64,000 bases of DNA from Blasia pusilla (lineage: Eukaryota), in NCBI GenBank assembly GCA_050084515.1, contig CM114271.1, positions 18,724,001-18,788,000 of the forward strand. Reading direction: 5' to 3'. The notes below the pieces were generated by a model. It did no database searches, was not told the origin of the DNA, and saw only the letters and a list, made by a program, of their open reading frames with translations. Every line of letters begins with the position of its first letter. Position 1 is the stretch's first letter. Below, piece after piece: positions 14,006 through 41,438 of the stretch. A program made the position numbers and the translations under genes.

Positions 14006-14149
14006 GAGGCTGATTGCCTAGTGCAGGAGGCTTGGTGTGAAGCTGTTATACCTCACGAGGAAGAGTAGGCCACTAGGCGGACTCCTACTTCTGGTCCAGT
14101 TGGGTTATCCCCTTTGGATACAACATCCATTGTATGGCAGTATCCGTCG

Positions 14150-15110: not shown

Positions 15111-15399
15111 GAGCAGCGTCGACTTCGGACTATGTCTGTGGGTCTTCCACCCCTTGTAATGAGCTCGATGGCTACCGGGACGATAGAGGCATGGGCTAGG
15201 GGCAAGGAGAGTACTATTTTGCATCCTTGGAGTAAATGGGATGTAATGGCTGGGCATGTGGAGTTGGTTGCTCATGCTGATGGAGGAGTTATTTTCTCAG
15301 ATGATGGTGTAGCTAAGGGTGTACCATCTTGTGAGGGGGTTGCGTAGCAGCCAATGGCATCGTCCTCTCCCTCTAGTGTACCAGTGGAGGAGACTTGGG

Positions 15400-15924
15400 A
15401 GCCATTACTTGGGCCCAAGCTTACGGGAGGTGAGAAATGACGCTTGACACAGTTCCTACGTGCTTATAGGAGTTGTTTTGCCTTTAGCATGAAGGAGTTG
15501 GGTGCTCTGGTTGGACCCGGTATACGGATTGATTTGGCTCGTGATACGCCAATCTTCCGTCGTCCCTACCGATATAGTGATATGGAGAGGGACCTGATTC
15601 AGAGTAGGACGTTGGACCTTTTGGAGGCTGGATTAGTGGAGTTGTTGCATGGAGAGTATGCATCAACCACTATCATGCCTACTAAAAAGGATATGCATGG
15701 AAACTACACGAATAGGCGAATGTGTGGAGATTACCATCCTATCAATCGGCAAACAAAGGCCGATAGGTATGCCATGCCTACACTTGAGGAGATCTTTGAT
15801 CTGGTGGGCCAAGCAAAGATTTTGAGTACTTTGGATCTTCAGGCAGAATAGCATCAGTTGCCAATTCGGAGAGTGACAAGGCCAAGACAACATTTTGGGG
15901 TGTCAACTCTCATGGCAAGGATTG
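15400..15924 (+). pseudogene. Family A reverse transcriptase, N-terminal part
   Basis: PIFRRPYRYS, RMCGDYHPIN, YAMPTLEEIFD and LSTLDL are gypsy RT motifs. Confidence 0.85.
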
Positions 15925-16956
15925 TGTCGTGCGCCTACTCTCCTTGAACGTTAATCTTGTTTGTTGCGGAAGCGTGCGTTCAGTAGGTCACGCTCTCAAC
16001 GCTGATCTGCATCCAAACACGCACTTCGGTTAGTCGGGTCTTGGATCAATCAGCGGGATTACTTTCCGAGTTCTCGTCTCGGACTCTCTCTTCAAGCTCA
16101 ACCTTCCTAGTTTCGCGGTTTCCACACGGGCAAGTCTCGCAAGACTTGGGACAGACTTTCTGGTCGGTTCAGGAACCTGAAACGGCGTTTCGCGCCTAGC
16201 GGTTCCAACTGTCCGATGAACATCCAATGAGTTCCTCACCAAGACTCGCACGAAGTGAATCTCGGGTTCGAATCCAAGTGTGGCGTACAAAGTCCACTCC
16301 CTTGGATCAGGTTTGGGTTTCGGGTTTCCGCGCCAAACTCCCGTTTCATCCCGTGCCTCTGAAACGCCGTTTGGCGCCCAAAGTGGGGTTTCGTTTCCCG
16401 AGACATCTCAACGAAGGTACTCCCCTTACTAGTACTTCTGGGGATCTCCGGGGGCCCCCTACATTTAGGGAAAGACACCCGGGCCCCTCCAATTGGCCCT
16501 CAACCCAATTGCTCTCTGAATCGTTTTCGGCCAATATCTCAGCCTGTACTTATGCGTTTGCTGAGATCTTTGGTGCGTTGGAAGCGTCTTGAGATCAACT
16601 TTCCAACGCGCCCTTATTTGTCCCGAACGCATCTTGGAGCTCAACGTTATGGTCCTAAACACAGTCAGATTCTCCCAAACGCTAGTCATGTTCCAAACTG
16701 GTTCTCACCTCTTTGGCAACCAACCTCCAAGACTCAACTCATCTCAAGTCTCAGCTTGCGTTTGGTCTAGGTTTCCTGGTTGCAACCATTAACGCATGAA
16801 ACGCACAACTCTGTGCCGCGTTTCGTCTCTTAGACTTTTCCAAGAGACTCTTCCAAACGCCTCTCCAAAGCGCAAACCTCGCGGCGTGAGTTCCTTTGAG
16901 TTCTGATGTTTCGCTTGGCGCGTATTTGGTGTTGTTTGGTTATGAGGGTCGCGACA
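15925..16956 (-). repeat. 3' LTR of family B copy 1
   Basis: Direct repeat of 22014-23041. Preceded on the minus strand by PPT AGGAGGGGTGAG (16957-16968). Confidence 0.92.
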
Positions 16957-17649
16957 CTCACCCCTCCTTAGAAGGTTGATGTCCTCATCAATGCAAACCT
17001 TATTGATGTTAAGTTCTGGAAAGCCGACCCCTTAACACAGAATCGCGTTCTGGTAGCTAACCCGCAATTCCTCTTTTTGGCTTAAGTCTTAGGTTTGTCG
17101 CTTAAAAGACTTAGACTTATTAGCTTCGCTTTCTACGATGAGCCTAGACTAGTTCTGCCAAACTAATCTAACTATCAAAATAAGCTCACTAAGTGCAACC
17201 TAACACTTCACTCACTATTTGTAAACAAACTTTGTCTTCCTAGCCAACTCGTACTATTTTTGGGTCACCTGTATTCCACCTAGGCGCGTCACTAAGTTCA
17301 GTCATGAAACATGAATGAGATCACCACAAACCCCAAGACAGACTCATCTGCCCGGCCGACTTTAGGGCGAGCCCAAATGCTAGTACTTCAACACTTGGTC
17401 CTGATCTAGATGCCTTATCTGAATACAAGCTCTCACCTCAAATACTCATTGTTTGGTCTCCTTGACTTACATCCTAAGCATATGAAGAACTACTCATTGC
17501 CTTGCACAAACCAAACTCAAAATTACAATACAAGCATCGAATCTCCGAATCCATGTCTTCTTTATTGCAACAACTAAACCTTTCTAGTTACAACGGGTTA
17601 TCGGCCCAAGCTTTCCGGTCACAAGTTATGTCCATTGCTTCACCATGTA

Positions 17650-20600
17650 CTAACGCACGTGCTTTGCTTGCATCCATCTGAAGTCACGCAATGCTTCTTG
17701 CGCATGTTCTAGATCCGCCTCCGCAATCCAAGTCGCCTCTTTCACATGATAGCCTTTCCACTTGACCAAGTACTCGTACTTGGTGGCCCTACGTCTGGAA
17801 CGCAGAATAGTCTCAACCTCGAACTCTGGTTCCTCATTTCTGATGACCGGTTGTGGTCTCAACATCCTCCTTCGCTCCGGACGCACATTGTCTTGAAGAT
17901 ACTTCTTCAATAATGACACATGGAAAGTCGGGTGAATCTTGAACTCGTTTGGCAGCTCCAACGTGTACACATCCTCAAACGGCCTTGCCTTGATCACATA
18001 CGGTCCAGCATACTTGGCTGACAATTTCATGAGACAATTCTTTCGAAGAGTGAGATTCTTAACACTCAACCACACTTGTTCCCCAACTTGGAAACTCACA
18101 TGGCGCCGACTTTTGTTAGCATGCTTTACGTACCTTAGTTGAGCCTTGGCGAGACTTTCTCTCGCTCGCTCTTGTCGTTCCTGTATTTCCACTAACAAAC
18201 ATTCCGCCGTTGCTTGACGAGTGTGTGTCGATGTATTTCCCTTCGAAAGAGCTAAGTCAAGACGCCCTTCTGGTTCTCTTTGATACGCCAGAAGAAACAG
18301 AGATTCTCCGGTTGCAGAATGCTTAGTCAAGTTGTAACAATACTCAGCCATACTTAACCACTTGGCCCAATCTCTTTGGTCCGCACTCACGTAATTCCGT
18401 TAGTATTGGTTTACGACCGAGTTTACTTTTTCCGTTTGCCCATCCGTTTGAGGATGGAAGGCCGTACTAAAGCTAAGTTTGGTCCGGAACCTCCTGAATA
18501 GATGTTTCCAAAAGGCACTGGTAAACTTCGGATCCCGATCGGACACAATGCTCCTAGGCAATCCGTGCGCACGCCACCAACCATCCAGGAATAGTCGGGA
18601 AGTCGTGTAGGCCGTCGCAGACTCTCTCGTAGGCACAAACCTCCCCAACTTGCTAAACCGATCAACTATCACAAGTATAGCGTTGTATCCCTCGGTCTGG
18701 AAGACTCGTAATGAAATCCATGCTAATGCTTTGCAAGGGTCCCTCCGGATTGGCAAAGGATGAAGTAAACCTTGTTTCTTCGCATAAGACACTCGGTTCT
18801 TTGGCGGAGTCACGCATGTTTTCACATATTGAGCAACATCTTCCTTCATGTTGGGCCAGAAGAACCTCTTAGACAAAACAGCAAGAGTGGATTTCTCCCC
18901 TTTGTGTCCCGTCAAAGGTCCATCATGACCTTCCACAAACACCTTGGTCCGTAGCTTGCCTTGGCCTACATAGATCCTGCTCTGCTTAAACCTTAGCAAG
19001 CCATGTCTCAAACTCAGATTGGCCACCTTCTCGCCCCGCTTTAACTTCCCAAGGTACTCCCTCGCTTGTTCATCCTTCATGTATCCTTCACGAATCCTTC
19101 TTTCCAGGTCTGTTTCATTAGGGAACATTGCTCTCAACACTTGTGTCGTCGATGGCATGTGTTCATCCCTGCGACTTAACGCATCTGGAATGACATTGTC
19201 TTTCCTCGGCTTGTGGATTAGCTCCACATTCATCAACGCCAAGGTATCATGCCACCGAAGTTGTTTTGGCGTCACGCGATCCTGGGTCTCAAAATACTTG
19301 AGCGATATGTTATCGGTGAATACTCGAGTCCTGTGAAGTCCCAAATAGTGACGCCACTTCCTCAAGCAATGAACCACCGCAAACAACTCTTTCTCATGAG
19401 TAGGCCATCTCCTTTCGGTGTCGGTCAGCTTCTTGCTTTTGTATGCTACAGGTCCCCCTTTTTGCACCAACATTCCTGCAATCGCGAAATCACTACCATC
19501 CGTGTGCACCTCAAGCGTTGTTCAAACTCGGCAGTTTGAATGGTTCTGCGAGAGGATCTCTTTGACTCGATTGAACGCTTTATCCACTTCCTCGGTCCAT
19601 GTAGTATTGGCAAACTTTGCGGTCCAATCCGTGAGAGGTTTCACTATGCCCGAAAAATTCTTCACGTATGTCCGTAAAACGGGCGACTCGATGAACCTTC
19701 TCATCCCTTCACCGTGGAAGGCGGTTCCCATTCGGCAATCGCGCTCACCTTTTCCATGTCCGGACTCACTCCATCCATGCCCGACCACATGCCCCAAGAA
19801 CTTGATCTTCGTCAAACCGAACTCACTCTTATCCGCATTTGCATACTGAGCTTGTTCGCCTAAGTTTCTCAAACACCGTCTTCAAATGTCGGCGTGCTCC
19901 TCTAGCGTTTTCGAATAGATGAGTATGTCATCTATATAGATGATCACAAACTCATCCGTCTCCTTGTGAAAGATGGAGTTCATCAAAGTGGTAAACTTCG
20001 GAGGCGCATTACAAAGACCGAAGGCATTACTACAAACTCGAGCGAACGTATCTCGTCCCCTGAGCGGTCTTCTCTACATCCGCCGGCAATCCGAATCTGA
20101 TAATATCGTGATTTCAGGTCAATCCGGCTGAAATACTTGGCACCCGACAATCGATCAAAGAGGTCATCCATCCTCGGTAGAGGATAGTTATTCCTTACCG
20201 TCACTTTATTCAGCGCCCGATAATCAACACAGAGTCTCAACTTCCCATCCTTCTTCTTGACAAAGAGGACGGGCGCCCCATAAGGTGACTTGCTCGTTCG
20301 GATGTAACCCTCTCTAGGAGTTCACCCAACTGTTTCTTCAACTCAGCAAGTTCCTCTTGATTCAACCTATATGGTGCCTTTGAAGGTGGTTGAGATCCTG
20401 GTATCACCTCAATCTTATGATCAACCGCCCTATGTGGTGGCAACTCAGTCGGAAGCTCCTTAGTCAACACATCTTCAAATTCTTTCACAACTCTCTTGAG
20501 TGTTTCAGGATCTCCCTTGAAGCTGAGTTCTGATCTCTGCATCTTGCGCTTGCATCATCCTCTACTCGTCTCATCAAGCAAAGGAATCCTTCCTCTAACT

Positions 20601-21861
20601 CGGCCAAACTCGTCCTCGTGATGGCGTTCACCAACTCCGTCTTTCTAGGCACCTCACGAACCAATCTGACGTTCGTCCGTTTGCCGTTAACCAAGACGCT
20701 TAACCTCAAAGGTCTCCGCCTCAGTTCCACCTCATACGCATCCAAGAACGTGTTCCCCAAGACTCCGTCGATACCGTCCATCTCGCAAACTGTAAAATTC
20801 TCCTTCAACTCAAATACTCCGCATCTCACAACTCGCCCTAAAACCAGATCTGATGTCTGGTGGGATTTTCCTCCCGCGAATCCTACCCTTATGGGTTCAT
20901 CCGCTTTGGTGGTTGGCTTCGCGTTGAGTTCCACTCGTTTCGCCGGTGGGGCAAGAGACCCTCCGTGGTCACGCTCACCCCCATTCCAAACCCTCTTGGA
21001 TGTCCCTTTGTTCTTCTGTAACTTAGAAAAACTTTTTGTCTCAAAGGGTTTCGGGTGTTGGACTTCATCGTCCCCAATCCGCTCGGCTAGTCTCAAGAGG
21101 TCCGCGCACGTCTCTGGGATGTGAGGCATACGAAAGAGAGCCTTCTCGGCACTCGGTTTGAGCCCACTTAGGAAGATCACCTTTTTAGTATGTTCATCCG
21201 TGGAAAGTGCATTCATGAGCGCACTAAACTCTCGCACATAAGCGCCAAGTGATCCACTCTGGCGCAACCTCACCACCTCCATGCCATCGCGGTACTCCTG
21301 ATATTCCGGAGTGAATCGGTTCCCAATCAACTCCTTGAAATCTTCCCAACTCAACGTTTTCCCACGACCTAGATGTTCTTTCCGGTGAGCCGTCCACCAA
21401 TGGAAAGCGTGATCCTTTGGAAACGTGACCGCTACAGTCACCTTGTCTTGTTCATCTGCCTTTTGCGCTTCGAAATAGAGTTCGAGTTCCGTTAGAAACT
21501 CGCTCACTTTCCGAGAACGCCCCATTCCTGTGAATGGCGTTGGCAAATTAGTCTTACAAAGCTTCTTGCCAGAACTAGAGGCTCCATTTGACTTGAATTC
21601 CGATATCACCTTGCTCTGTTCAGCCATCTGGTCCGCCATCACCTTCATCAATCCCATCATTTGGGTATAAAAGGCCGGATCGTTTAAGTTTGGACCCGAA
21701 GGTCCCGCGGAAAGATTTTCGGTTGGAACATCCTCATGTCTGGGACTTGGCACTTCGGGAGTCGCAAATTCCACCTCCGGCTCTTGGTCCGTCATTGATT
21801 TGTCTCTTGGCTTCTTTGCTTTGACTCGCGGTTTCCTCGGTTCTTCGCCCTTGGTCGCCAT
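17650..21861 (-). pseudogene. Family B gag-pol with C-terminal chromodomain (copy 1), multiple frameshifts
   Basis: ORF fragments with gag, [46 protein letters not shown] and a chromodomain. Confidence 0.88.
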
Positions 21862-21999
21862 TTGCGAGTCGTCGCCTTTTCTCAGATCTCCTCCTCGCCT
21901 CTTGCGTTCCTCCTCGGCGTCGCGGTCTTCCGGCTACCTTGAGTTCTTCCCAAACGTCCAGATCTTCAACGACCCCAAGTTCACGCTCATCAAGGAATT

Positions 22000-22011
22000 G
22001 CTCTGATACCA
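22000..22011 (-). promoter_or_regulatory. Primer-binding site complementary to initiator tRNA-Met
   Basis: TGGTATCAGAGC on the minus strand, 2 nt after the 5' LTR end. Confidence 0.9.
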
Positions 22012-22013
22012 CG

Positions 22014-23041
22014 TGTCGTGCGCCTACTCTCCTTGAACGTTAATCTTGTTTGTTGCGGAAGCGCGTCGCGTTGATGAGGTCACGCTCAACGCGATCTCCA
22101 TCCAAACACACACTTCGGTTAGTCGGGTCTTGGATCAATCAGCGGGATTACTTTCCGAGTTCTCGTCTCGGACTCTCTTCAAGCTCAACCTTCCTAGTTT
22201 CGCGGTTTCCAACACGGGCAAGTCTCGAAAGACTTGGGGAGACTTTTCAGTCGGTTCGGGAACTGAAAACGGCGTTTCGCGCCTAGCGGTTCCAACTTTC
22301 CGATGAACATCCAATGAGTTCCTCACCAAGACTCCCACAAAGTGAATCTCGGGTTGGAATCCATGTGTGGTTTACAAAGTCCACTCCCTTGGATCAGGTT
22401 TGGGTTTCGAGTTTCCGCGCCAAACTCCCGTTCCATCCCGTGCCTCTGAAACGCCGTTTGGCGCCCAAAGTGGGGTTTCGTTTCCCGAGACATCTCAAAG
22501 AAGGTACTCCCCTTACTAGTACTTCTGGGGATCTCCGGGGCCTCCTACATTTAGGGAAAGACACCCGGGCCTCTCCAATTGGCCCTCAACCCGATTGCTC
22601 TCTCAATCTTTTTCGCCCAATATCTCAGCCTGTACTTATGCGTTTGCTGAGATCTTTGGTGCGTTGGAAGCGTCTTGAGATCAACTTTCCAACGCGCCCT
22701 TATTTGTCCCGAACGCATCTTGGAGCTCAACGTTATGGTCCTAAACACAGTCAGATTCTCCCAAACGCTAGTCATGTTCCAAACTGGTTCTCACCTCTTT
22801 GGCAACCAACCTCCAAGACTCAACTCATCTCAAGTCTCAGCTTGCGTTTGGTCTAGGTTTCCTGGTCGCGACCATTAACGCATGAAACGCACAACTCTGT
22901 TCGCGTTTCGTCTCTTAGACTTTTCCAAGAGACTCTTCCAAACGCCTCTCCAAAGCGCAAACCTCGCGGCGTGAGTTCCTTTGAGTTCTGATGTTTCACT
23001 TGGCGCGTATTTGGTGTTGTTTGGTTATGAGGGTCGCGACA
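22014..23041 (-). repeat. 5' LTR of family B copy 1
   Basis: Repeat of 15925-16956, followed by the iMet PBS. Confidence 0.92.
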
Positions 23042-25589
23042 AATTGTTTGTACCAGTGGAAATTCTTACCCTTTGGGTTGAAGAATGCACCTGGCGAGTT
23101 TCAGAGAGTGATGGACAAGATCCTAGTAGGGTTGGATTTTGTTCGGTGTTACATTGATGATATGTTGGTGTTCAGTAACACGGTGGAGGAGCATCAGATA
23201 CATTTGCAGATGGTGTTTGAGCGGTTGAAAGCTCATGGTCTACGTTTGCATCCAAGAAAGTGTAAGTTCTTCCATGAGGATGTTGAGTACTTGGGTCATG
23301 TGATCTATCCAAGTGGTTTGGGAGTTCAGCAAGCAAAGGTGGAGGCTATTGCACTTATTTCGCGTCCAGTAGATGTGAGTAGAGTTCGGGCATTCATGGG
23401 ATTGGCGAACTACTATCGGAGGTATGTGAAGGGATTTAGTGCTATCGCAAAGCCTTTGAACCAATTGCTGAAATCAGATCAAGAGTGGCACTGGGGAGAT
23501 GATCAGGAGAGAGCTTTTGTGGAGCTTAAGGCCCAATTGGTGGCGGCGCCTATCTTGAGGAGACCTATCAGAGGGCGCCCATTTCAGTTACACACTAATT
23601 GGAGTAGGTTGGGACTTGGAGCGGTGTTGACACAACATGATGATGAGCACATGGAGTTTTTGGTGGCCTATGCAAGTCGTTCGAATAATGCAGCGGAGTC
23701 GCGCTATAGTTCATATGAGGGAGAGTGCTTGGCAGTAGTGTGGGTTGTGGCACACTTTAGGTGTTACTTGTTTGGCACACAGTTTACCCTTGTTACTGAT
23801 CACCAGCCGCTCAAGTGGTTGATGGAGTCTGACAAGCTTACAGGGAAGCTTGCACGGTGGGCTCTTATCTTACAGGAGTATAACTTCCAGGTGGTACATA
23901 GACTTGGAGTTGCCAACCTTGATGCTAATGGGTTGAGTAGGAACCCATGTACTAGCCAAGAGGATGCAACTGGGGCTACATGGCATGGCGAGGTTGATGA
24001 GGAGATGGTGCCAGGTTGGCATGCATCCATCTTTTTATGTTGGTTAGGGGTGGACTCTAGTATGAAGGACCACATGACATCTTACTCTAGTCAGAGGGTA
24101 GATGGCCAGCCTTCAGATCCTAAGGTTGGAGATGGTGGTATGGATCAGCGTGATATTCATGATGATGCGTTGGTGTTGGAGTTCCTACGGACCAGTAGGG
24201 TGTCAGGTATAGTGATTGCCAAGGAGCGAGACCGTGTTCTTCAACGTGCTAAGAGGTATCGATTGGAGGGAACACATATTCTCTGTGTGTGGGAGGATGG
24301 TAGAGTACAAGTAGTGCCGCATTTGGCTTAGAGAGAGCGCATTGTGCGACATGCCCATGAGGAGTTGGGACATTTTGGGGTAAAGCGTACGTATAGCTTA
24401 CTCCTTGGTCAGTATTGGTGGCGTGGCATGCATACTCAGGTGCAGCAGTTGGTGTCACGTTGTATGGTTTGTGACCGGGTGAGAGCATCATTCAATGCCC
24501 CTACACCACAGTTACACCCCTTGCCTATTATGAGGTTGGATTACCGTTGGAGTGTGGACTTTGCGGGACCGTTACCGTTGACTGTACGACATCATCGATA
24601 TGTGTTGGTGATGGTGGAGCACTTCTCCAAGTGGATTGAGTTGGTGGCATTACGACAAGGCAAGTGAGGAACGGCGTCGCGTTTCTTGATAGAGTGCTTA
24701 GTCATTTTGGTGCACCGGTTGAAGTCTTGACCGACTAGGTCTGAGTTTGAGGTGAGTTTGGTCTTGTATGACAAGGCGTTGATTGATCATCGGACCACGT
24801 CTCGAGATTATCCAGAGGCGGATGGTTTGGCTAAGCGTGTGGTTCAGACGGTGAAGAGGGCATTGCGCAAGTATGGCCTACAGAAGGGGCATCTTGGAGA
24901 CTGGGATATTCAGTTTCCATGGTTAGCCATGGGGTATAGGTTCAGTCGCCAAGCATCCTTGGCTTCCTTCTCACCTTATTTTCTGTTACGGCCGAGATCC
25001 AGACTTGCCAGCAGCAATTCGTTGGGAGTCTAGTGAGGTGGTGAACCTTGATGACCCAAGGATGTGGATAAGGATGTGTTCTCAACGGGCGGAGCTCTTT
25101 TGGAGAGTTATGCCAACAGCCTTTGAGAATCTTGCCATTGCTCAACATAGAGATACGTTGCAGTATGCAACCATTCGGGGTGGAGGTTATTGACCATCGA
25201 TTTGTAGGTTCCATGTGGACTATGTCTATTTGCAGCATATTGCACCGACAACGTTGGATGTGATGGCAGGCCGCACTATTTTACAAGTGCGCGAGGTGTT
25301 AGCTTATGGAGTTCTCATGTTGGAGGGTCGTGATGGAGTTTTTTGGAAGGACCATGTGCGTAATTGTGCGCCATGTCATCTTCCAAATGTGGATGGTACT
25401 GTTGACCCAAGCTTAGCCATGATACGTGCTAGCTTGAGGTGCATGTTGTGTGGGTCTACTGATAACGCAGCCCGTATGTTGGTGTGTGATCGGTGTTCTA
25501 GGGGTTGGCACATGATGTGTTTGACTCCACGTATGGATGTTGTTTCTACTGGAAGGTGGGTTTGTCCTCGATATATTTCGGAGAGGTAG
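23042..25589 (+). pseudogene. Family A RT (C-terminal part)-RNase H-integrase-PHD finger
   Basis: PFGLKNAP, CYIDDML, RNase H LVTDHQPL, HHCC HAHEELGH...CMVC, rve WSVDFAGPLP and PEADGLAKR, PHD CMLC...CDRC...WHMMCL...WVCP. Confidence 0.9.
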
Positions 25590-25752
25590 ATGACTTGATC
25601 TTTGCATGATATGGATTACAGATGTGCGACTAACGATGGGGCAACCTAGCACCCGGCCTCTTGATTCGTGCACCCACGAAGGTATATAGCATGTAGTAGA
25701 TGTATAGGGCTACCTGGGAGTTAGAGGGACCTAACCACCAGTTAGGGGGGCG

Positions 25753-25823
25753 AGTTGTGGTACACTTATGTTTGTGGATGCTCTCATCTTTGTTATGTAT
25801 GTATGTGAGTATAGTATGTCAGC
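25753..25823 (+). repeat. First part of terminal segment B of family A copy 2 (resumes at 31918-31953 after the family B insertion)
   Basis: 25753-25823 plus 31918-31953 reconstitute a 107-bp unit that is repeated at 32321-32427. Confidence 0.8.
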
Positions 25824-26025
25824 TGTCACGACCCTCATAACCAAACAACACCAAATACGCACAAGCGAAACATTAGAACTCAAAGGAACTCACGCCGCGA
25901 GGTTTGCGCTTTGGAGAGGCGTTTGGAAGAGTCTCTTGGAAAAGTCTAAGAGACGAAACGCGGAACATAAATGTGCATTTCATGCGTTAGTGGTCGCGAC
26001 CAGGAAACCTAGACCAAACGCGAGC

Positions 26026-29000
26026 GAGTTTCTAACGGAACTCGAACTCTATTTTGAAGCGCAAAAGGCAGATGAACAAGACAAGGTGAGTGTAGCGGTC
26101 ACGTTTTCAAAGGATCACGCTCTCCATTGGTGGACGGCTCACCGCAAAGAACATCTAGGTCGTGGGAAAACGTTGAGTTGGGAAGATTTCAAGGAGTTGA
26201 TTGGGAACCGATTCACTCCGGAATATCAGGAGTACCGCGATGGCATGGAGGTGGTGAGGTTGCGCCAGAGTGGATCACTTGGCGCTTATGTGCGAGAGTT
26301 TAGTGCGCTCATGAATGCACTTTCCACGGATGAACATACTAGAAAGGTGATCTTCCTAAGTGGGCTCAAACCGAGTGCCGAGAAGGCTCTCTTTCGTATG
26401 CCTCACATCCCAGAGACGTGCGCGGATCTCTTGAGACTAGCCGAGCGGATTGAGGACGATGAAGTCCAACACCCGAAACCCTTTGAGACAAAAAGTTTTT
26501 CTAAGTTACAGAAGAACAAAGGGACATCCAAGAGGGTTTGGAATGGGGGTGAGCGTGACCACGGAGGGTCTCTTGCCCCACCGGCGAAACGAGTGGAACT
26601 CAACGCAAAGCCAAAGGGGCCGCCGTTTACAAAGTCAACGAATGCCAAAGTGATTTGCTACAATTGTGGCGAACCCGGGCATATGGCTAAGGAATGTGTT
26701 AGGCCCAAGGTTAGTAAACCGAGTATGATTGCGTTTGCCGCTAAGCATTTATCGGAGGGAGATCTAGATACATCTCTACAAGTCACCAAGAGAACGCCCA
26801 ATTTAGTTTACCTAGGATCCAAGATCGCTAATCGCGATGTGATGTTGCTCGTTGATACAGGTGCTTCGCACTCATTCTTGAGTCCGAGAATCGTAAAAAC
26901 GTTGGGATTTCCAACCACCAAGGCGGATGAACCCATTAGGGTAGGATTCGCGGGAGGCAAGTCCCACCAGACATCAGATCTGGTTTTAGGGCTAGTTGTG
27001 AGTTGCGGAGTATTTGAGTTGAAGGAGAATTTTACAGTTTGCGAGATGGACGGTATCGACAGAGTCTTGGGGAACACGTTCTTGGATGCGTATGAGGTGG
27101 AACTGAGGCGGAGACCTTTGAGGTTGAGCGCATTGGTTAACGGCAAATGGACGGACGTAAGATTGGTTCGTGAGGTGCCTAGAAAGACGGAGTTGGTGAA
27201 CGCCATCACGAGGACGAGTTTGGTCGAGTTAGAGGAAGGATTCCTTTGCTTGATGAGACGAGTAGAGGATGATGCAAGCGCGAGATGCAGAGATCAGAAC
27301 TCAGCTTCAAGGGGAATCCCTGAAACACTCAAGAGAGTTGTGAAAGAATTTGAAGATGTGTTGACTAAGGAGCTTCCGATTGAGTTGCCACCACATAGGG
27401 CGGTTGATCATAAGATTGAGGTGATACCAAGATCTCAACCACCTTCAAAGGCACCATATAGGTTGAATCAAGAGGAACTTGCTGAGTTGAAGAAACAGTT
27501 GGGTGAACTCCTAGAGAGGGGTTACATCCGAACAAGCAAGTCACCTTATGGGGCGCCCGTCCTCTTTGTCAAGAAGAAGGATGGGAAGTTGAGACTCAGT
27601 GTTGATTATCGGGCGCTGAATAAAGTGACGGTAAGGAATAACTATCCTCTACCGAGGATGGATGACCTCTTTGATCGATTGTCGGGTGCCAAGTATTTCA
27701 GCCGGATTGACCTGAAATCACGATATTATCAATTCGGATTGCCGAAGCGGATGTAGAGAAGACTGCCTGTAGGGTGAGATACGGTTTGTTTGAGTTTGTA
27801 GTAATGCCTTTCGGTCTTTGTAATGCGCCTCCGACGTTCACCACTTTGATGAACTCCATCTTTCATAAGGAGACGGATGAGTTTGTGATCATCTATATAG
27901 ATGACATACTCATCTATTTGAAAACCCTAGAGGAGCATGCTCGATATTTGAAGACGGTGTTTGAGAAACTTAGGGCGAACAAGCTATATGCAAATGCAGA
28001 TAAGAGTGAGTTCGGTTTGACGAAGATCAAGTTCTTGGGGCATGTGGTTAGTGCGGATGGAGTGAGTCCAGACATGGAAAAGGTGAGCGCGATTGCCAAA
28101 TGGGAACGGCCTTCCACGGTGAAGGGGATGAGAAGGTTCATCGGAGCTGTCCAGTTTTACCGGACATACGTGAAGAACTTTTCGGGCATAGTGAAACCTC
28201 TCACCGATTGGACCGCAAAGTTTGCCAATACTTCATGGACCGAGGAAGTGGATAAAGCATTCAATCGAGTCAAAGAGATCCTCTCGCAGGAACTAGTTCT
28301 GAAACTGCCGGAGTTTGAACAACCGTTCGAGGTGCACACGGATGCTAGTGATTTCGCTATTGCAGGAATGTTGGTGCAAAAAGGGAGACCTGTAGCATAC
28401 GAAAGCAAGAAGCTTAGCAACACCGAAAGGAGATGGCCTACTCATGAGAAAGAGTTTTTTGCGGTGGTTCATTGCTTGAGGAAGTGGCGTCACTATTTGG
28501 GACTTCACAAGACTCGAGTATTCACCGATAACATATCGCTCAAGTATTTTGAGACCCAGGATCGCGTGACGCCAAAACAACTTCGGTGGCATGATACCTT
28601 GGCGTTGATGAATGTGGAGCTAATCCACAAGCCGGGGAAAGACAATGTCATTCCAGATACGTTAAGTCGCAGGGATGAACACATGCCATGGACGACACAA
28701 GTGTTGAGAGCAATGTTCCCTAATGAAACAGACCTGGAAAGAAGGATTCGTGAAGGATACATGAAGGATGAGCAAGCGAGGGAGTACCTTGGGAAGTTAA
28801 AGCGAGGCGAGAAGTTGGCCAATCTGAGTTTGAGACACGGCTTGCTAAGGTTTAAGCAGAGCAGGATCTATGTAGGCCAAGGCAAGCTATGGACCAAGGT
28901 GTTTGTAGAATGTCATGATGGACCTTTGGCGGGACACAAAGGGGAGAAATCCACTCTTGCTGTTTTGTCTAAGAGGTTCTTCTGGCCCAACATGAAGGAA

Positions 29001-30190
29001 GATGTTGCTCAATATGTGAAAACATGCGTGACCTGCCAGGCGAACCGCGTGTCTTATGCAAAGAAACAAGGCTTACTTCATCCTTTGCCAATCCCGGAGG
29101 GACCCTTGCAAAGCATTAGCATGGATTTCATTACGAGTCTTCCAATCTGAGGGATATAACGCTATACTTGTGATAGTTGATTGGTTTAGCAAGTTGGGGA
29201 GGTTTGTGCCAACAAGAGAGTTTGCGACGGCCTACACGACTTCCCGACTATTCCTGGATGGTTGGTGGCGTGCGCACGGATTGCCTAGGAGCATTGTGTC
29301 CGATCGGGATCCGAAGTTTACCAGTGCCTTTTGGAAACATCTATTCAGGAGGTTCCGGACCAAACTCAGCTTTAGTACGGCCTTCCATCCTCAAACAGAT
29401 GGGCAAACGGAAAAAGTAAACTCGGTTGTAAACCAATACTTACAGAATTACGTGAATGCGTACCAAAGAGATTGGGCCAAGTGGTTAAGTATGGCTGAGT
29501 ATTGTTACAACTCGACTAAGCATTCTGCAACCGGAGAATCTCCATTTCTTCTGGCGTATCAAAGAGAACCAGAAGGGCCTCTTGACTTAGCTCTTTCGAA
29601 GGGCAATACATCGACACACACTCGTCAAGCAACGGCGGAATGTTTGTTAGTGGAAATGCAGGAACAACAAGAGCGAGCGAGAGAAAGTCTCGCCAAGGCT
29701 CAACTAAGGTACGTAAAGCATGCTAACAAAAGTCGGCGCCAAGTGAGTTTCCAAGTTGGGGAACAAGTGTGGTTGAGTGTTAAGAATCTCACTCTTCGAA
29801 GGAATTTTCATGCGAAATTGTCACCAAGTATCTTTGGACCGTATGTGATCAAGGCAAAGCCGTTTGAGGATGTATAAACATTGAGCCGCAAACGAGTTCA
29901 AGATTCACCCGACTTTCCATGTGTCATTATTGAAGAAGTATCTTCAAGACAATGTGCGTCCGGAGCGAAGGAGGATGTTGAGACCACAACTGGTCATCAG
30001 AAATGAGGAACCAGAGTTCGAGGTTGAGACCATTCTGCGTTCCAGACGTAGGGCCACCAAGTACGAGTACTTGGTCAAGTGGAAAGGCTATCATGTGAAA
30101 GAGGCGACTTGAATTGCGGAGGCGGATCTAGAACATGCGCAAGAAGCATTGCGTGACTTCAGATGGATGCAAGAAAGGCACGTGCGTTAG
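26026..30190 (+). pseudogene. Family B gag-pol (copy 2), frameshifted
   Basis: ORFs 25768-27756, 27774-29150, 29056-29877 and 29921-30112 carry all gypsy domains plus a chromodomain. Confidence 0.88.
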
Positions 30191-30882
30191 TACATGGTGA
30201 AGCAATGGACATAACTTGTGACCGGAAAGCTTGGGCGGATAACCTGTTGTAACTAGAAAGGTTTAGTTATTGCAATAAAGAAGACATGGATTTGGAGATT
30301 CAATGCTGTATTGTAATTTTGAGTTTGGTTGTGCAAGGCAATGAGTAGTTCTTCATATGCTTAGGATGTAAGTCAAGGAGACCAAACAATGAGTATTTGA
30401 GGTGAGAGCTTGTATTCAGATAAGGCATCTAGATCAGGACCAAATGTTGAAGTACTAGCATTTGGGCTTGCCCTAACCTCGGCGGGGCAGATGAGTCTGT
30501 CTTGGGGTTTTTTGTGATCTCATTCATGTTTCATAACTGAACTTAGTGACGTGCCTAGGTGGAGTATAGGTGACCCAAAAGTAGTACGAGTTGGCTAGGT
30601 AGACAGGCGGTTGTTTACAAATAGTGAGTGAAGTGTTAGGTTGTAGACTTAGTGAGCTTATTTTGATAGTTAGATTAGTTCAGCAGAACTACTCTAGGCT
30701 CATCGGAAAGAAGAAGCTAATAAGTCTAAGTACTGCAAGCGAAAACCTAAGACTTAAGCCAAAAAGAGGAATTGCGGGTTAGCTACCAGAACGCGATTCT
30801 GTGTTAAGGGGTCGGCTTCCCAGAACTTAACATCAATAAGGTTTGCGTTGATGAGGACATCAACCTTCTAAGGAGGGGTGAG

Positions 30883-31914
30883 TGTCGTGACCCTCATAAC
30901 CAAACAACACCAAATACGCGCCAAGCGAAACATCAGAACTCAAAGGAACTCACGCCGCGAGGTTTGCGCTTTGGAGAGGCGTTTGGAAGAGTCTCTTGGA
31001 AAAGTCTAAGAGACGAAACGCGGAACAGAGTTGTGCATTTCATGTGTTAGTGGTCGCGACCAGGAAACCTAGACCAAACGTGAGCCGAGACTTGAGAGAT
31101 GAGTTGAGTCTTGGGAGGTTGGTTGCCAAAGAGGTGAGAACCAGTTTGGAACACGACTAGCGTTTGGGAGAATCTGATTGTGTTTAGGACCATAACGTTG
31201 AGCTCCAAGATGCGTTTGGGAAAAATAAGGGCGGGTTGGAAAGTTGATCTCAAGACGCTTCCAACGCACCAAAGATCTCAGCAAACGCATAAGTACAGGC
31301 TGAGATATTGGGCGAAAAAGATTGAGAGAGCAATCGGGTTGAGGGCCAATTGGAGAGGCCCGGGTGTCTTTCCCTAAATGTAGGAGGCCCCGGAGATCCC
31401 CAGAAGTACTAGTAAGGGGAGTACCTTCTTTGAGATGTCTCGGGAAACGAAACCCCACTTTGGGCGCCAAACGGCGTTTAGAGGCACGGGATGGAACGGG
31501 AGTTTGGCGCGGAAACTCGAAACCCAAACTTGATCCAAGGGAGTGGACTTTGTACGCCACACATGGATTCCAACCCGAGATTCACTTTGTGGGAGTCTTG
31601 GTGAGGAACTCATTGGATGTTCATCGGAAAGTTGGAACCGCTAGGCGCGAAACGCCGTTTCAGGTTCCTGAACCGACCAGAAAGTCTGTCCCAAGTCTTT
31701 CGAGACTTGCCCGTGTTGGAAACCGCGAAACTAGGAAGGTTGAGCTTGAAGAGAGTCCGAGACGAGAACTCAGAAAGTAATCCCGCTGATTGATCCAAGA
31801 CCCGACTAACCGAAGTGCGTGTTTGGATGCAGATCAACGTTGAGAGCGTGACCTACTGAACGCACGTTTCCGCAACAAACAAGATTAACGTTCAAGGAGA
31901 GTAGGCGCACGACA
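30883..31914 (+). repeat. 3' LTR of family B copy 2
   Basis: TGTCGTGACC...GGCGCACGACA; reverse complement of the copy 1 LTRs. Confidence 0.92.
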
Positions 31915-31917
31915 CAC

Positions 31918-32427
31918 AATGTATGTTGTATGACGATGTGGATTCGCACGACAGCTGTCATGACCATACGGATTATGTCGTAGAGTATAGTGTGCTAGTA
32001 GAGGCCATACCTTATGTAGGACCGTAGTGGATAGGTAGAGATGCGGTTTCATACATAGGGTTGGGGGTTACTCAATTGGGGCTGACTTTCCCAGTAGGGC
32101 CTGCTCTTAGGTTGGAGGATATAGTGGAGTGCACCCAAAGAACAGTCAGTTCTTTGAGTTGAGCCTGTTGCGTTGGGAGTTAGCCTTGGTAGTGAGTAGA
32201 GCTCTTGGCTATGGTGTTTCGCGTAAGCTTCGACCTAGATTCTCCTATCGTGGAGTGGGTTTGGCTCGATTGTATGTGATTCTCTACGTGTTTTATGACA
32301 GTAGGTCTTTCACGGATTTCAGTTGTTGTACACTTATGTTTGTGGATGCTCTCTTCTATGTTATGTTTGTATGTGAGTATGGTATGTCAGCGATGTATGT
32401 TGTATGACGATGTGGATTCGCACGACA
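31918..32427 (+). repeat. Family A 3' terminal repeats: end of B, GC, A (31956-32320), B' (32321-32427)
   Basis: A matches 1598-1962 (reverse complement). B' matches 25753-25823 plus 31918-31953. Confidence 0.85.
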
Positions 32428-35400
32428 CTCTTGCTACCAAGCTTCCACTCTTGCTATTCCACCAGACATCAGATCTGGTCATAGAGACTCACTTTTGTTT
32501 GATGTTTGGCTTCATAGGGATGCCTTCTCGTTTTGCTCATGTCCCCAGATCCATTACTTTGGTTTCATACCTAGTGTTATTGATTTTTTGCAAGTTGACT
32601 ACTAGATCCGAAATCGTGTTTGCCACACTATGTGCAGCCCCAACTCTCTCGCTAGTTGCTTTGCATAAGCCTTTGTGAGAAGTTGGTTCCATAGACTAGG
32701 GTTTATGTTTTAAATTTTTTTGATTTAGGCCTCATTTAGACATAATTTGATTCGCATTCGGGTCTAGTTCATTGGGGTCACATATGGCCCAGAGACAAAA
32801 GACGATGAGTGCTTTCTTAGATAAGGAACGTCGAAACAATGGGCCATTTATTAGGCATATTCTGGTTCATTTGACGATAAAGATGAACAACCTGCATCAA
32901 GAAGTAGTGCGTCCTTATATGAAAAATTTTGCGTAGCCTAGAAGGATATATGGTACTCAATATACGACTGGATTGGTTATGATTCAATCCTTGGTATAAT
33001 TTTTTGTAAAGTCTATAGCAAGGGAAAGGGGAAGAGTTCTTTTGCCAAAGATGGAGCAATTAATTGCAAAGTCTCTGCATTCACTAACCACGCCAAGTCT
33101 AATAAGCATATCAAGCTCTCATGGGTTACGAATGGAGGTAAGAAGTCGATGGCCAAGTCCATTCCAATTACAAACAAAACTTATCAAGTAGCCATTCTAA
33201 CATTGTTTAAGTGCGGATACTTCCTCACAAAGGGGGCTATGCCATTTCTGAAATTTCCCAATCTGTGTAAGTTGTTGCTTTTTATAAACGTATCTATTAC
33301 GAGAGACCTTTATCTCGATGAAAAGAGTTGTAGTGAAATATCTTACTTCATTTGCCAAATTTTGTTGAGAAGAAATCTTGCAAGAGTTCATGCCTCTCCC
33401 TTCTTCGGAATTATGATTGATGAGTCCACACACATGTCTGTTACAAGTCATTTAGTTGTGTTCGCCACTTTCATTGAAGAGGGTTAGGCAGAATGTCTCT
33501 TTTAGGATTACTTCATTGTAAATCAAAATGTTCTAATGTTTTTACTGAAACTTTGTTGCAACTCATCAAGGATGGAGGGTTGGATTTTTCTAAGATGGTA
33601 GCATTTGACTCACATGGTGCCTCAAAACTTGCCAAATAGGGATAGCCTCACAACTGAGGCAAAAGGTAAATCCCTATATTCTATCTATTCATTGTGTTGC
33701 TCATAAGACAAATCTCGCAACTTTGTCTTTATTGCAAAAGCTACTGATTGCAAGGCAATCTTGAGTGAAATAGATTCAATTCTGAATGCTATAGGAGGTC
33801 CTCCAAGAGGAAAAACCTTCTAGCATCGTTGTTGGAAAAGTTCAATGACTCCCAAAGTGTCATGGAGAGATACCATAAAATACGATCGTTATCTTGTTCG
33901 CAAGTTGTTTCCACATTTTGTGATTCTCTAGAATCTGTGTTGAGTTATTTTAGGGACATTTCCCCTTCGTAGGAGGATGGGAATACTACTAATTTATTTC
34001 ACATGTTAAGATCATTCCAAATGATCTATCAGTTATATTTTCTAGCTAGCTGATATTCTTTCCATGCTTGTGAATTTGAGAAAGATTTTCAAGTACAAGT
34101 TTGAGGATGTTAGCATTATCTTGAAATGAAAAAATGCTCTCGAGATACCTTCTATTACTATAAATTTTGTGATGGACACCTTTGACTTGAATGCATTGAC
34201 ATTTAATTTTATGAAGATATAGGTTACCACATTTTACCTAATTTTGTGCCTCTAGGTGGCTATCTTTCACGTTTACTATTTGAGATAAGGGATTAAAAGT
34301 TCCATAGTATAGAGATGTCCCAAGATTTCACATGAAGGGATTTAGAGGCTGCCTTACTCTTTAAGAAATGGTTGCTGAAAGTGTTTGTTCAACTACAGAG
34401 GATGGATTTTGAGATAACTACCTCATTGGTGCAATGAAAATTATGAACCCCTTGCACATGGTGACCCGACAAGTGGGATTGAATAGTTGGGTCTGTAAAG
34501 ACTTAGATGATCTGTGAGGATATTTTAGAGCATAATTTATGATTCAGGGTCAGTTGCAACCTGCTTTAATTAATTCTCCTATTGTTAAGCAATAGTTTCA
34601 ATCTTTCAAATTTATGGCTATCACGCAGGGGGAGGATAGCAATTTTAGAGACCTATGGGCTATGGTAAGCTAGAGTCCCTCTCTGCAATGTAAGTTTTCA
34701 AACTTGATAATTTTAGAAAATTTTATTAGAGTCCAATGTGTAAGTATTACCATATATGAGAGAGCATTCTCCATTTAGAATATGATCAAGAGAAAATCTC
34801 ATAGTAGATTTTTTACAAAATAAGTAGGTGTTGTTTTGAGGATTGCCTTAGAAGGACTTCCTTTGAGTATGAGGATATGTTGTCTGAGTTTGTGTTTCAT
34901 TTAAGACATATATTTGCTAATCTCGATAGATTTTTGTCTCCACAAATAGAAGGAGGTAACACTGAAATATTTAGAAATTAGGATACTTGTATATTTTGAT
35001 TTGTTGGTGTAATAGGGCCCATTTAGATTACTTGGAGCTTTGGGGCCCCCAGTATTTTAGAGGGGGGAGGATCCTCAACTCCCAAGTGGTTGGAGAATTA
35101 TTAGGTTCAACTCGTGCCAAGGATATCAAAGCCTCAGGAATGGAAATGTATAGAACGTCATATGATATTAAACTTAATTGACTATAGGTTTTAGAAGTTG
35201 TTCGAGCAAAGTGAACTTTTTTACACATTGGAGACAAGTTTCAATTGAAGAGTGAGTGAATGGGAGACTAGTTTCTGTTAAAAAGTTAGTGCATGGGAAA
35301 GAGAGCACGAAATAATCCTATGAATTTTTAAAGGGATGGATTTTGGCCAAACTCTCAAGAAAACTCAAAAACTCCATGCTAAGAAAAAAAAGAAGAAATC

Positions 35401-36388: not shown

Positions 36389-37261
36389 TTTGTAGGACCT
36401 TCCAAATGGGTCCGCATTATTATTAGTGGAAACGTGAGCTGGAAATAGCGTAGGAATGCTAGGGCGTGTTACCCTTTCTGTGAAGTACGGAGTCCATAAA
36501 TGAGGAACCTCCAATCACTTTGGAAAGAAGGGACGGTACGGCCGTCCGCCGCAGGACCACTAGGGCTGCCCGGCTGGCTCTACCACTGTCCGCAGTCGCA
36601 GGCAGGCACGGCGAGCGTCCCCGTGAGCCCGCCCGCACGGCTGCATCGTCGCGACAGTTTTACTGGAGGGGTGACGGAGGGACCGGAGGGTTGCTGCCGA
36701 CGGATGGAGACTTCGCGAGGGACGGAGGGCCGACCCTAGGAAGGCCGGCGACGGATGCTGGCGGCGACGGCGAGAGCAGGCGGCCGCCGATGCGGAGCAC
36801 GACACGGCTCTTTTCTTTCTGCGACTCTACTATCGCAGAGGAGAGGCGCGAGCACCAGCACGGGCGACGCGGTCGGGCAACCCGGCCCTGCATTGGAGAG
36901 GAGGCGGGAAGAGACCCGGCCGGGGAGCACATACAGAGGAAGGAAGAAGACTGGCTACTCTGTGGTCTGTGTTAGCGTGAGGAAGGCAGAGATTTCAGTC
37001 GACTGCAGCAGAGGAGGAGCTCGAGAATCAAGAACGGGAAGCATCCGCACAGGGGGAGGAGCAAGTAGAGGAGTCCCTTCCGGCGGTAGTTTCTCCAGTT
37101 GGCGAGTGGCAGCTCCATGGAGAGCAGGGATCGTTGACGCAAGCGAAGTACGTCGAGGTGGACCTGGAGAAGCAGCGATTGAAGAAATTGCAGGGTCGGG
37201 AATCAGTGGAGAAATTGAGGGGTGAGTTTGGGCTGTTTGGCATGTGTTGAGAAAGGGGGAT

Positions 37262-39602: not shown

Positions 39603-39872
39603 CAGTAGACAACACCCAAGGGACTCTCTGCCGAGCTAGTCTACGATTCTTCACGACTCCCAGAGCGCTAAAATCTGCCGTGCTAGAGGCGAAATTCAGC
39701 CCGGTAACACGAGATTTAAGTTTAGAACGCAGTCATCCAGTAGATAACAGCCAAGCGACTATCTGCCGAGCGAGTCTACGATTCTTCAAGACTCCCAGAG
39801 CGCTCAAACCTGCCGTGCCAGAGACAAAATTCAGCCCGGTAACACGAAATTTAAGTTGAGAACGCAGTCATT
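39603..39872 (+). repeat. Tandem duplication of a 135-bp unit
   Basis: 39603-39737 and 39738-39872 align throughout (CAGTAGA...AGAACGCAGTCAT). Confidence 0.8.
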
Positions 39873-41438
39873 CAGTGACCCTATGGGAGGAGGTGTGAGG
39901 ACGATTCGCCCGGTGAATCGTCCTGTTATCGCGCACTTGTTGCCACGGGACATTCACCCCCCAACCCCACACCACACCCAGACAGACTCAAAGGGTATGA
40001 CGCACGGCGTTTCCCGCACGACTTCGCTGGCTGTCCGTCCACGACGATCAAATACCCGACGCCGTTCTCTCGGATCCGTCCAGCAAATGGACGGAGGGAA
40101 TCATAATCCGCCGTCCACTTCCGTTCGCACTAAGAATGATTGCGAACCTAAAAGCGGTTTTCAAGTTTTGAAATTTGTAAAACGTAACAATCACTTACGG
40201 TCCCTAAGGCCCCCATATCTCCATCTCTAACATTGCGTCAAGAATCTAACGCCACCGTCCATTTTGAGATGTGCAATTTGATGTCCATTTGCCCTGAATT
40301 TGATGTTCATTTGCCCTGAATTACGGGTGAATCTACTTCAACTTAACTATCTGATGAATTTCAAACCTCTTGTTACGAAGATTCATGTCATAACCTATGG
40401 TCTTCAATACACATTTGAACTGTATAGTACTCCTCCAATTTTAAAAGAAACACTTTTTTAAGGAAAACTACTCTTAAATATAAAAAGTCATCTAATTATT
40501 CCATCCACACTAGGAATTATTTAATTGTTTTCTTTTTAAACTAATTAAATAATTTCATTTTTTCTATTTAAAAAAATAAAAGAATTTTGTTTGTAATTAT
40601 TTTTATGTGATTCAATCTTTTCAATCTAAAGTCCAATGTGTTCATCTTTTCAAACTTGAATTTTGGGTTCTTCTTTTTTCCACTTAAGATTGAGTTTTCC
40701 AAAGTTCTTGGGATCTTTGGACCTCCTTCTCTCTAAACGTGCTCATAAATTCCTATACGCAATTTCAAATATAACACTCTCCTTATAGAGTGATACCCGG
40801 TTACCATTGGTTTAAGGGATTCCTCTTGCTTTTCTGGATCTTTTGATACGGGCTCGGCCCAACATTACGAACTCATTCCCTCATAACGGTCATTGGTGGG
40901 TGGCTCACTTACTCCTCACATCCTCTTTTTTTGGTGTTTTCAATTTCTTTCATAACTTTCTTTTGGAATGTCGGTTTTGGACGTGTTTGGGCTTGTTTTG
41001 ATCGTCTTGACGATCTCATTCTTTTGATATCAAGAAGTTTTTCTAGTTTTTTCTTCCTTCTCTGTAGGCGCCTATTTTTTTGTGCGGGTTTGTTTTAGGT
41101 CAATTCCTCCCAAAAGTCTTCCTTGCTCTTCCAACTCCTTACCTTACTGTTTTGCCCCTACATACGTTTACCATCTCCTTAAGGACATTAGAAATTCATA
41201 TTCTTGAGCCACCTCTTCCGATACTATATAGATCACTTTTCCTTTTCAATTGCTTTTTATATTTTTCTTATAGTAACTTTCAATCATAAATTCGGTATTG
41301 CCTAATCTTCATCTCTCCATCTAAATTTCTTTTGGACGGATTCCACTACTTTTTCTTTTCTTGTTATCCTCATACTTTCTCCAAACCACGTTTCATATGT
41401 CTTTTTGTGTCTTAGATGACTTGCCTACCTTTACTTCT

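Follow-up and report, generated by a model that had tools for sequence, protein, structure and literature searches.

Split A...B-A-B repeats in a Ty3/gypsy-type retrotransposon family of the liverwort Blasia pusilla, with a possible integration site inside the long terminal repeat

How does a retrotransposon that encodes the integrase of the Ty3/gypsy elements come to be bounded by the repeats of another class of element? This question is raised by a 64,000-nucleotide stretch of the Blasia pusilla genome (assembly GCA_050084515.1, contig CM114271.1, positions 18,724,001 to 18,788,000, forward strand), hereafter the window, whose own numbering is used for all coordinates below. Self-BLAST and direct reading revealed that the window holds three copies of a retrotransposon family, termed family Y, and two nested elements of an ordinary gypsy family, termed family X. 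Split direct repeats are classed with tyrosine recombinases, and equal long terminal repeats (LTRs) with DDE integrases. Family Y breaks this textbook link. It is a Ty3/gypsy-type family with the integrated form A-PBS...PPT-B-GC-A-B', in which A and B are repeats, GC is a 2-nt spacer, PBS is the primer binding site and PPT is the polypurine tract. Its insertions end in A on the 5' side and in B-GC-A-B' on the 3' side rather than in two equal LTRs, and these are the split direct repeats, A...B-A-B, of the DIRS type.

The 3' tail of copy 2 lies on the plus strand, where a PPT (AGGGGGG, 25744-25750, followed by CG to 25752) adjoins repeat B. A nested element splits B into a left part of 71 nt (25753-25823) and a right part of 35 nt ending in GCACGACA (31919-31953). 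The GC spacer (31954-31955), repeat A of 366 bp (TGTCATGACC...GGATTTCA, 31956-32321) and repeat B' (32321-32427) follow, and B' forms the 3' terminus, ending in GCACGACA with unrelated flank beyond. The left part of B is 93% identical to 32321-32391 (E 2e-25) and the right part is 100% identical to B' (E 9e-14), values that rule out a chance repeat. The border between B and A reads CACGACA-GC-TGTCATG, a palindrome at 7 of 8 positions around a perfect ACAGCTGT. The termini TGTCATG...CACGACA, which match each other at 7 of 8 positions, are of the Metaviridae type, with the PBS adjoining A and the PPT adjoining B.

Copy 1 provides a 5' end. Its repeat A (1597-1962, minus strand, 366 bp, TGTCATGACC...GGATTTCA) is 97% identical to 31956-32321, and a BLAST of the window on itself finds A in these two places only. 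The copy begins exactly at the TGTCATGACC of A, at 1962, with no B ahead of it; the flank from 1963 is the reverse complement of the pol tail of copy 3. Immediately past A stands the PBS, CTCAAAGAACT (1586-1596, minus strand), and then an untranslated leader (1-1585, minus strand) that leaves the window and that is 91% identical over 1-507 to 11507-10987 of copy 2. Copy 3 belongs to a diverged subfamily. Its pol tail and PHD finger (1963-2430, plus strand), broken off at 1963 where copy 1 has inserted, show 60-63% identity by tblastn with the PHD open reading frame (ORF) of copy 2 and 75% identity at the DNA level to 25122-25453. Its tail (2597-3376, plus strand) consists of a PPT (AGGGGGG, 2597-2603), B (2606-2733), GC (2734-2735), a repeat A of its own, A3 (2736-3248), and B' (3249-3376), which again ends in GCACGACA. 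An earlier note made from the sequence alone had described this arrangement, and its positions are correct to the base; its observations that copy 1 starts at A without B, that copy 3 has the same layout and that the B/A border is an imperfect palindrome with a 2-nt spacer were all borne out.

Metagenome contigs were then scanned for the B|GC|A border. The scan returned 32 loci, which BLAST divided into 11 relatives and 21 chance matches; the relatives come from another host and are 77-89% identical to the window tail. L013/L015, L007/L009 and L016/L023 represent one site each, giving 8 independent sites, or 9 independent loci when L016 and L023, whose upstream sides differ, are counted apart. 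Wherever the upstream side is readable (L001, L003, L004, L007, L009, L013, L015, L016 and L031) the pol tail and PPT precede B, and the PPT is kept in copy 3 and in 8 metagenome loci. The order PPT-B-GC-A-B'-flank is seen in L003, L004, L007/L009, L018 and L031, and in L016/L023 with B' internally deleted. Across the metagenome loci and window copies 2 and 3 there are 8 different 3' flanks, every one of which begins after GCA(C/T)GACA, and two independent 5' ends (copy 1 and L001) start at the TGTCATGACC of A. L001 is a whole element in which flank passes into TGTCATGACC and CTCAAAGAAT comes immediately after A; the contig breaks off in the 3' tail of the element, PPT-B-GC-A, and the element's own two A copies are 94.5% alike. 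In none of these border-scan relatives does the leader follow B-GC-A, nor does A or flank stand ahead of B.

Sequencing reads contain the same joints. Three raw RNA runs mapped on 31800-32600 yielded 399, 516 and 394 reads, nearly all of them sense. Loose read ends ahead of the start of B have the PPT as their consensus (37, 60 and 34 reads, agreement 0.99-1). The joint 32392->31919 is crossed by 57, 95 and 63 reads, which shows B to be unbroken in other copies. The first base of A is reached from differing flanks by 13, 17 and 18 reads (agreement ~0.5), and among the reads listed, 28 (run X22) and 13 (run X24) leave the end of A into CTCAAAGAACT and the leader. Beyond 32427, DNA contigs and RNA reads alike continue into differing sequences. 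Identical joints in RNA reads and in other assemblies rule out an assembly artefact. In a DNA read set, run X1 (a name it shares with a nested element described below), 22225 contig pieces fall on an 801-bp stretch, and family Y is therefore high-copy. The centre of the spacer varies: a C>T change at 31955, giving GT, occurs in 58 of 125, 67 of 160 and 37 of 105 RNA reads (~35-46%), and its two central bases are thus not fixed. The A...B-A-B layout is recurrent and family-wide, in the window, in the metagenome loci and in reads.

A separate observation from these runs concerns repeat A itself. Reads in all three (3, 7 and 5) join 32271 back to 31985 with 4 nt shared, and this joint is in no DNA contig of DNA run X1; it could stem from a variant copy whose A is partly duplicated in tandem, or from an event at the RNA level.

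Could nothing unusual lie behind these copies? The true LTR might be A+B (TGTCATG...CACGACA), with the upstream B a stray partial duplication and with 5' ends that lost their B by deletion. The termini of A+B' do look perfect, and every family Y copy in the window is decayed, with stops and frameshifts. However, the three joints repeat base for base in two window subfamilies and at 8 independent sites of another host; the two independent 5' ends and the heterogeneous read flanks start at A and go straight to the PBS; no locus has A-B followed by a PBS; and A has no purine tract ahead of it. An ordinary LTR is already contradicted by these findings, and we regard it as extremely improbable.

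The coding region is that of a gypsy element. Copy 2 survives in three plus-strand parts (10987-15923, 23042-25823 and 31919-32427), broken by the family X elements X1 and X2, and its 5' end is absent. The first part of the body (10987-15923) contains a leader remnant, gag with CCHC knuckles, protease, a probable, decayed C5 DNA methyltransferase and the start of the reverse transcriptase (RT); the second (23042-25743) contains RT, ribonuclease H (RNase H), integrase with an H2C2 zinc finger and rve core, and a PHD finger. The order of domains is thus gag, protease, the probable C5 DNA methyltransferase, RT, RNase H, DDE integrase and PHD finger, and within it protease, RT, RNase H and DDE integrase follow one another as in Ty3/gypsy Pol. 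Pfam matches in copy 2 are RVT_1 (2e-23), RT_RNaseH (2e-35), Integrase_H2C2 (1e-16) and PHD (4e-10); the match to rve is weak, and the integrase core is conserved across 19 aligned sequences (the window and 18 relatives). The DSG motif of the protease and the CCHC knuckles were read directly in the ORFs. The methyltransferase (14069-15347), between protease and RT, matches PF00145 at E 0.0019, its 18.1 bits falling short of the cut-off of 22, and among PDB sequences this region is closest to DNMT3A/3B, at only E 0.1. The PHD finger (25194-25589) lies downstream of the integrase, and the C-terminus bears this domain, not a chromodomain.

A tyrosine recombinase would be the expected companion of split repeats, and an element of that kind was considered and ruled out: PF00589 has no match in the 19 window ORFs scanned, 7 of them leader ORFs, nor does it appear in the Pfam lists of the 120 matches listed of 1068 RT-RNase H relatives, and an integrase is present. 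In the leader, 7 of the 12 ORFs in 1-1600 were tested and gave no Pfam family at cut-off. The tyrosine recombinase without DDE integrase that marks the DIRS elements is thus not found in family Y, and the earlier designation as a gypsy element with a DDE integrase is upheld by both the Pfam order and the integrase alignment. The 1068 relatives came from a protein search with the RT-RNase H ORF, and many of the 120 listed combine RVT_1, RNase H, rve and PHD, often with PF00145. Nearest among the named matches listed are two proteins of Marchantia polymorpha (73% and 81% identity), both with PF00145; proteins of Klebsormidium nitens are 42-44% identical to the window RT-RNase H, and one of them (P0069) has PF00145. 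The same domain set, with methyltransferase and PHD, occurs in named relatives listed from Marchantia, Klebsormidium, Closterium, Chara, Haematococcus and Pleodorina.

If A and B are the parts, what is the repeat that reverse transcription makes? The PBS adjoins the end of A and the PPT adjoins B; therefore U5 (the unique 5' region) ends with A, U3 (the unique 3' region) starts with B, and the replicative LTR is B-GC-A. This conclusion is well supported and agrees with the B+A proposed before. The 11 nt past A of copy 1, CTCAAAGAACT, are the exact complement, at offset 0, of AGTTCTTTGAG within A (32148-32158 in copy 2), and an anchored complement of 11 nt was reached in 9 of 20000 shuffles of A. 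This site also follows A in L001, in L013 and in loose ends of RNA reads and DNA contigs. The PBS is therefore where the earlier note had placed it, adjoining A, but as a complement of a site inside A instead of a tRNA site. No tRNA genes were found in the window, and a search for a PBS of the initiator methionine tRNA (tRNA-iMet) matched family X only, not family Y.

The self-primer motif (at most 2 mismatches in a 13-nt window) was found in 13 of 15 A copies examined, namely in the window (2), L001 (two), L003, L007, L009, L013, L015, L016, L018, L023 and L031; L004 and L013's own A yielded no match. It lies ~27 nt past the TATA (32120-32123) in the window and ~31-33 nt past a TATAAA in the metagenome family. 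From this spacing and from the complementarity of the PBS, we predict that transcription starts at AGTTCTTTGAG. In the self-priming of Tf1 the match is 11 nt. As in elements of the Tf1/Sushi type, including the Tcn1 clade of mosses and club-mosses, the PBS of family Y complements a site within the LTR and not a tRNA; its complementarity and TATA spacing fit a PBS that pairs with the first bases of the transcript, although the start itself is a predicted one. Tf1/Sushi elements have two equal LTRs and a chromodomain, whereas family Y has split repeats and a PHD finger. For the Tcn1 clade, self-priming of the Tf1 type was predicted by Neumann et al. 2019 (PMC6317226).

One way to obtain B' would be to copy it from RNA. 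Transcripts would read through A into B', and DNA synthesis would be bridged on the internal B-GC-A in the manner of DIRS/PAT elements instead of by LTR-type strand transfers. The layout is that of PAT/Ngaro/TOC1 (PMC5890265), and a few RNA reads do pass from B' into flanks, 11 heterogeneous ones in run X24. Against this, RNA depth drops 4- to 8-fold before the end of A, from 113-219 across B and the 5' portion of A to 28-42 in A's last bin; therefore most transcripts stop before B', and B' must be re-made in each cycle. The PPT and PBS stand exactly where LTR-type replication needs them, and the absence of PF00589 from the ORFs and listed relatives noted above also speaks against this route, which we consider quite improbable. 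PAT, Ngaro and TOC1, of the DIRS order, resemble family Y in their split repeats and in insertions that end at a B|A border also found internally. They differ in having a tyrosine recombinase and neither DDE integrase nor protease, whereas family Y has integrase, protease, TG...CA inverted termini, a PPT and a PBS.

The alternative is that B' is added after LTR-type replication. Within a copy, B and B' are 83-97% identical (83% in copy 3), whereas between the window subfamilies they are ~60% identical (copy 3 B against copy 2 B or B', only 59-61%). In each cycle B and B' are thus made on a single template, like the members of an LTR pair. The joint between A and B' consists of the end of U5 and the base that follows GGGGGGYGA, in 8 tails (6 metagenome, 2 window) and with no indels; base changes lie beside it in L004 and L009. 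The U5 end and the U3 start have no homology, and the joint therefore records the end-to-end joining of cDNA (complementary DNA), by ligation or by a non-homologous polymerase jump.

We propose the following route. Transcription would begin in the 5' A at the predicted AGTTCTTTGAG and end in the 3' A; the first 11 nt of the RNA would prime the minus strand at the complementary site adjoining A, as in Tf1, and the PPT adjoining B would prime the plus strand. The product would be a linear cDNA with B-GC-A at both ends. The integrase would bypass these ends. Its likely recognition sequences, TGTCATGAC... and ...GCACGACA, which are the termini of ordinary gypsy families in this genome, lie back to back, 2 bp apart, in the palindrome within B-GC-A. 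The U5 end would be joined to the U3 start, as in a 2-LTR circle or some other end-joined equivalent, the integrase would cut the palindrome beside the PBS-side A, and insertion of the opened molecule would give A...B-GC-A-B'. We infer the end-joined intermediate, the integrase as the cutter and the choice of cut site, and we favour this joining, internal cutting and insertion tentatively, with a confidence that falls somewhat short of even. Integration from a circle cut inside the LTR, as the earlier note suggested, is the leading candidate mechanism: a joining of U5 to U3 predicts the A|B' joint, and the reciprocal insertion that a circle also leads one to expect was not seen in any of the 9 independent loci.

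That last result is the first of several that weigh against our proposal. The reciprocal form, A-B-GC-A-PBS...PPT-B, would be detected equally well by the border scan, and its 0 of 9 has a binomial probability of ~0.002 at equal odds. The same palindrome occurs twice in a closed 2-LTR circle, yet the choice of cut is one-sided; insertions from the reciprocal cut would be dead, but they should be equally frequent. Either the intermediate is something other than a symmetric closed circle, or the cut is decided by when synthesis takes place or by where the site lies relative to a DNA end. The RNA evidence has weak points as well: the depth argument is blurred past 32321, where reads of the internal B also map onto B', and the sole start pile reported, at 32117 in one of the three RNA runs, is not at the predicted start. 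No usable RNA pile was found at the predicted start in these runs, and no poly(A) loose ends among those listed. Finally, in L033, a distant relative with 45% identity in RT-RNase H, TGTCACG follows the PPT without a gap. L033 came from viral contigs, where scans for the border pattern and with a single protein each gave 0 hits and a scan with an alignment gave 65 loci, 4 of them gypsy-like relatives (38-45% identity) and 61, which we would label caulimovirus, at only 26-39%. The non-coding parts of L033 and L034 contain no CA-n-TG palindrome. Given the ordinary PPT|TGTCACG border of L033, the split layout marks a sub-lineage and does not extend to the whole PHD-bearing clade.

Two of these contigs deserve a remark of their own. 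L033 and L036, filed as viral in IMG/VR, are gypsy-type retroelements 38-45% identical to family Y Pol. Both have 99-nt identical ends, most likely an assembly collapse of element repeats, and such terminal overlaps therefore cannot show an integrated layout.

The one-sidedness of the insertions invites two other accounts of the same product. The first assigns the A|B' joint to the reverse transcriptase: the plus strand, on reaching the end of U5, would jump without homology to the 3' end of the minus strand of the same molecule and copy B and the spacer, after which the integrase would cut the first ACA|GC, with no closed circle. Such a directional polymerase step could account for the lack of reciprocal forms in 9 loci, and the joint was made without gained or lost bases in all 8 tails, the changes in L004 and L009 lying only nearby. 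Blunt ligation, however, also gives a clean joint most often, and the two routes are not separated by this feature; that the family Y enzyme makes end-to-end jumps is an assumption. We judge this account unlikely, while taking it seriously.

A possible hint comes from L013/L015. In this locus (L013 3361-3878) PPT-B-GC-A-CTCAAAGAACT-ATG-TTCTTTGAG is followed by the inverted first ~165-184 nt of A, ending GGTCATGACA|flank. The arrangement is suggestive of a possible fossil, in which plus-strand strong-stop DNA (B-GC-A-PBS) would have snapped back on the self-primer site, been extended, and been cut at ACA. It counts in favour of the route proposed above, and it would suggest, in favour of the polymerase jump, that the enzyme readily extends mis-paired 3' ends. 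Among the points that tell against us, the fold-back arm of L013 is 91.8% identical to its own A but up to 92.4% identical to other copies, and it may instead be a second, inverted element joined by deletion.

The second account leaves the cDNA linear. The integrase would assemble on the palindrome of the left LTR, cut both strands and insert both new ends, and host repair would then join the U5 end to the U3 start. The product is the same, and the left palindrome lies 109-118 bp from the DNA end, compared with ~368 bp for the right LTR, which would give a one-sided choice; L013/L015, too, ends at an ACA site ~110 nt inside the would-be fold-back DNA. This account, on the other hand, asks for a chromosome break that is held and precisely repaired at each insertion, all 8 joints being without indels, and no precedent was found in the literature searched. 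It seems to us improbable. Joining of the cDNA ends followed by an integrase cut at the internal palindrome remains the reading that we carry forward.

How far are such elements known? In de Mendoza et al. 2018, the legend of Fig. 4c describes KnitGypsy-Dnmt3 of Klebsormidium nitens as having DIRS-element repeats and gypsy domains, and the legend of Fig. 1e gives the DIRS arrangement as A-coding-B-A-B (PMC5890265). On the wording of that legend, the premise of the earlier note that gypsy elements have two equal LTRs is outdated, and a gypsy element with split repeats is not wholly new. KnitGypsy-Dnmt3 has a gypsy-type Pol, as does family Y, with a cytosine methyltransferase domain of which copy 2 of the window keeps a decayed, probable counterpart, and its combination of DIRS-like repeats with gypsy domains, as the legend words it, is also that of family Y (PMC5890265). 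The host differs, being an alga, and the passages of the main text that deal with the element hold no PPT, PBS, palindromic border or integration account. A limited literature search likewise returned no account of PPT/PBS placement, an internal palindrome or self-priming in such elements.

Cutting at an internal palindrome does have a parallel in retroviruses. Cleavage of palindromic LTR-LTR junctions by integrase has been reported for foamy virus and HIV-1 (PMC1180852, PMC1905944), and in retroviral 2-LTR circles (PMC1180852, PMC1905944, PMC4372172), as proposed here for family Y, a DDE integrase cuts the internal palindrome of back-to-back ends. In retroviruses the palindrome arises only from the joining of cDNA ends and the path is a side path; in family Y the palindrome is present in each LTR, the joined ends (A|B') are non-palindromic, and the route would be obligatory. 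Family X offers a comparison within the window, where its termini, TGTCGYGACC...GCACGACA, are the same ends as the TGTCATGACC and GCACGACA of family Y. Family X has 2 nt between the LTR end and the PBS, and the junction of a family X circle would therefore resemble the internal ACA-GC-TGT of family Y. Each B-GC-A of family Y would in this respect hold a ready-made pair of integrase sites, back to back.

These points can be put as one broader proposition: a lineage of green-plant gypsy elements with DDE integrase may have shifted integration away from the cDNA termini and onto a palindrome within the LTR, so that it must pass through an end-joined, circle-like cDNA re-opened by the integrase. 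We advance this more cautiously still than the route itself, as a possibility. If true, family Y would represent an obligatory form of the retroviral side path, and the life style of DIRS/PAT elements would have been reached convergently without a tyrosine recombinase. It would also bear on the old question of whether LTR-LTR junctions are true integration substrates. That the layout works is plain from family Y itself, which is transcribed, abundant and found in two hosts or more. The anatomy predicts cDNA ends at the PPT/PBS borders, an extrachromosomal A|B joint and an integrase cut at ACA-GC-TGT, all testable in the liverwort; Marchantia polymorpha, a close relative of it, serves as a laboratory model. 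There are consequences for annotation too. A standard LTR finder would take A+B' for a solo LTR, or would pair the A copies and overlook B, and would set element boundaries and insertion ages wrong; for dating by LTR divergence, B/B' is usable besides A/A.

The remaining features of the window are mainly repeats. X1 (15924-23041, minus strand) is an ordinary family X element with two 1033-bp LTRs (TGTCGCGACC...GCACGACA), a PBS of the tRNA-iMet type and a 5-bp duplication in which 4 of the 5 positions agree. X2 (25824-31914, plus strand), the second family X element, is nested in B of copy 2, together with CACA at 31915-31918. Its 5' LTR is shortened to 205 bp (25824-26028) and fused to gag, and unlike X1 it has no clear target duplication. 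Another repeat family has three copies that are 75-88% alike, at 4775-6949, 9050-10999 and 32855-35124 (minus strand), and one of them adjoins the truncated 5' side of copy 2 with an overlap of ~13 nt. Direct repeats of ~1 kb at 46826-47824 and 50900-51901 are 72% alike, end in GCACGACA and are related to the family X LTR. The 8-mer GCACGACA itself is present 9 times in the window, where 1.3 occurrences would be expected, once at 36797-36804. Lastly, 39603-39876 consists of two tandem copies of a 135-bp unit that are 90% alike.

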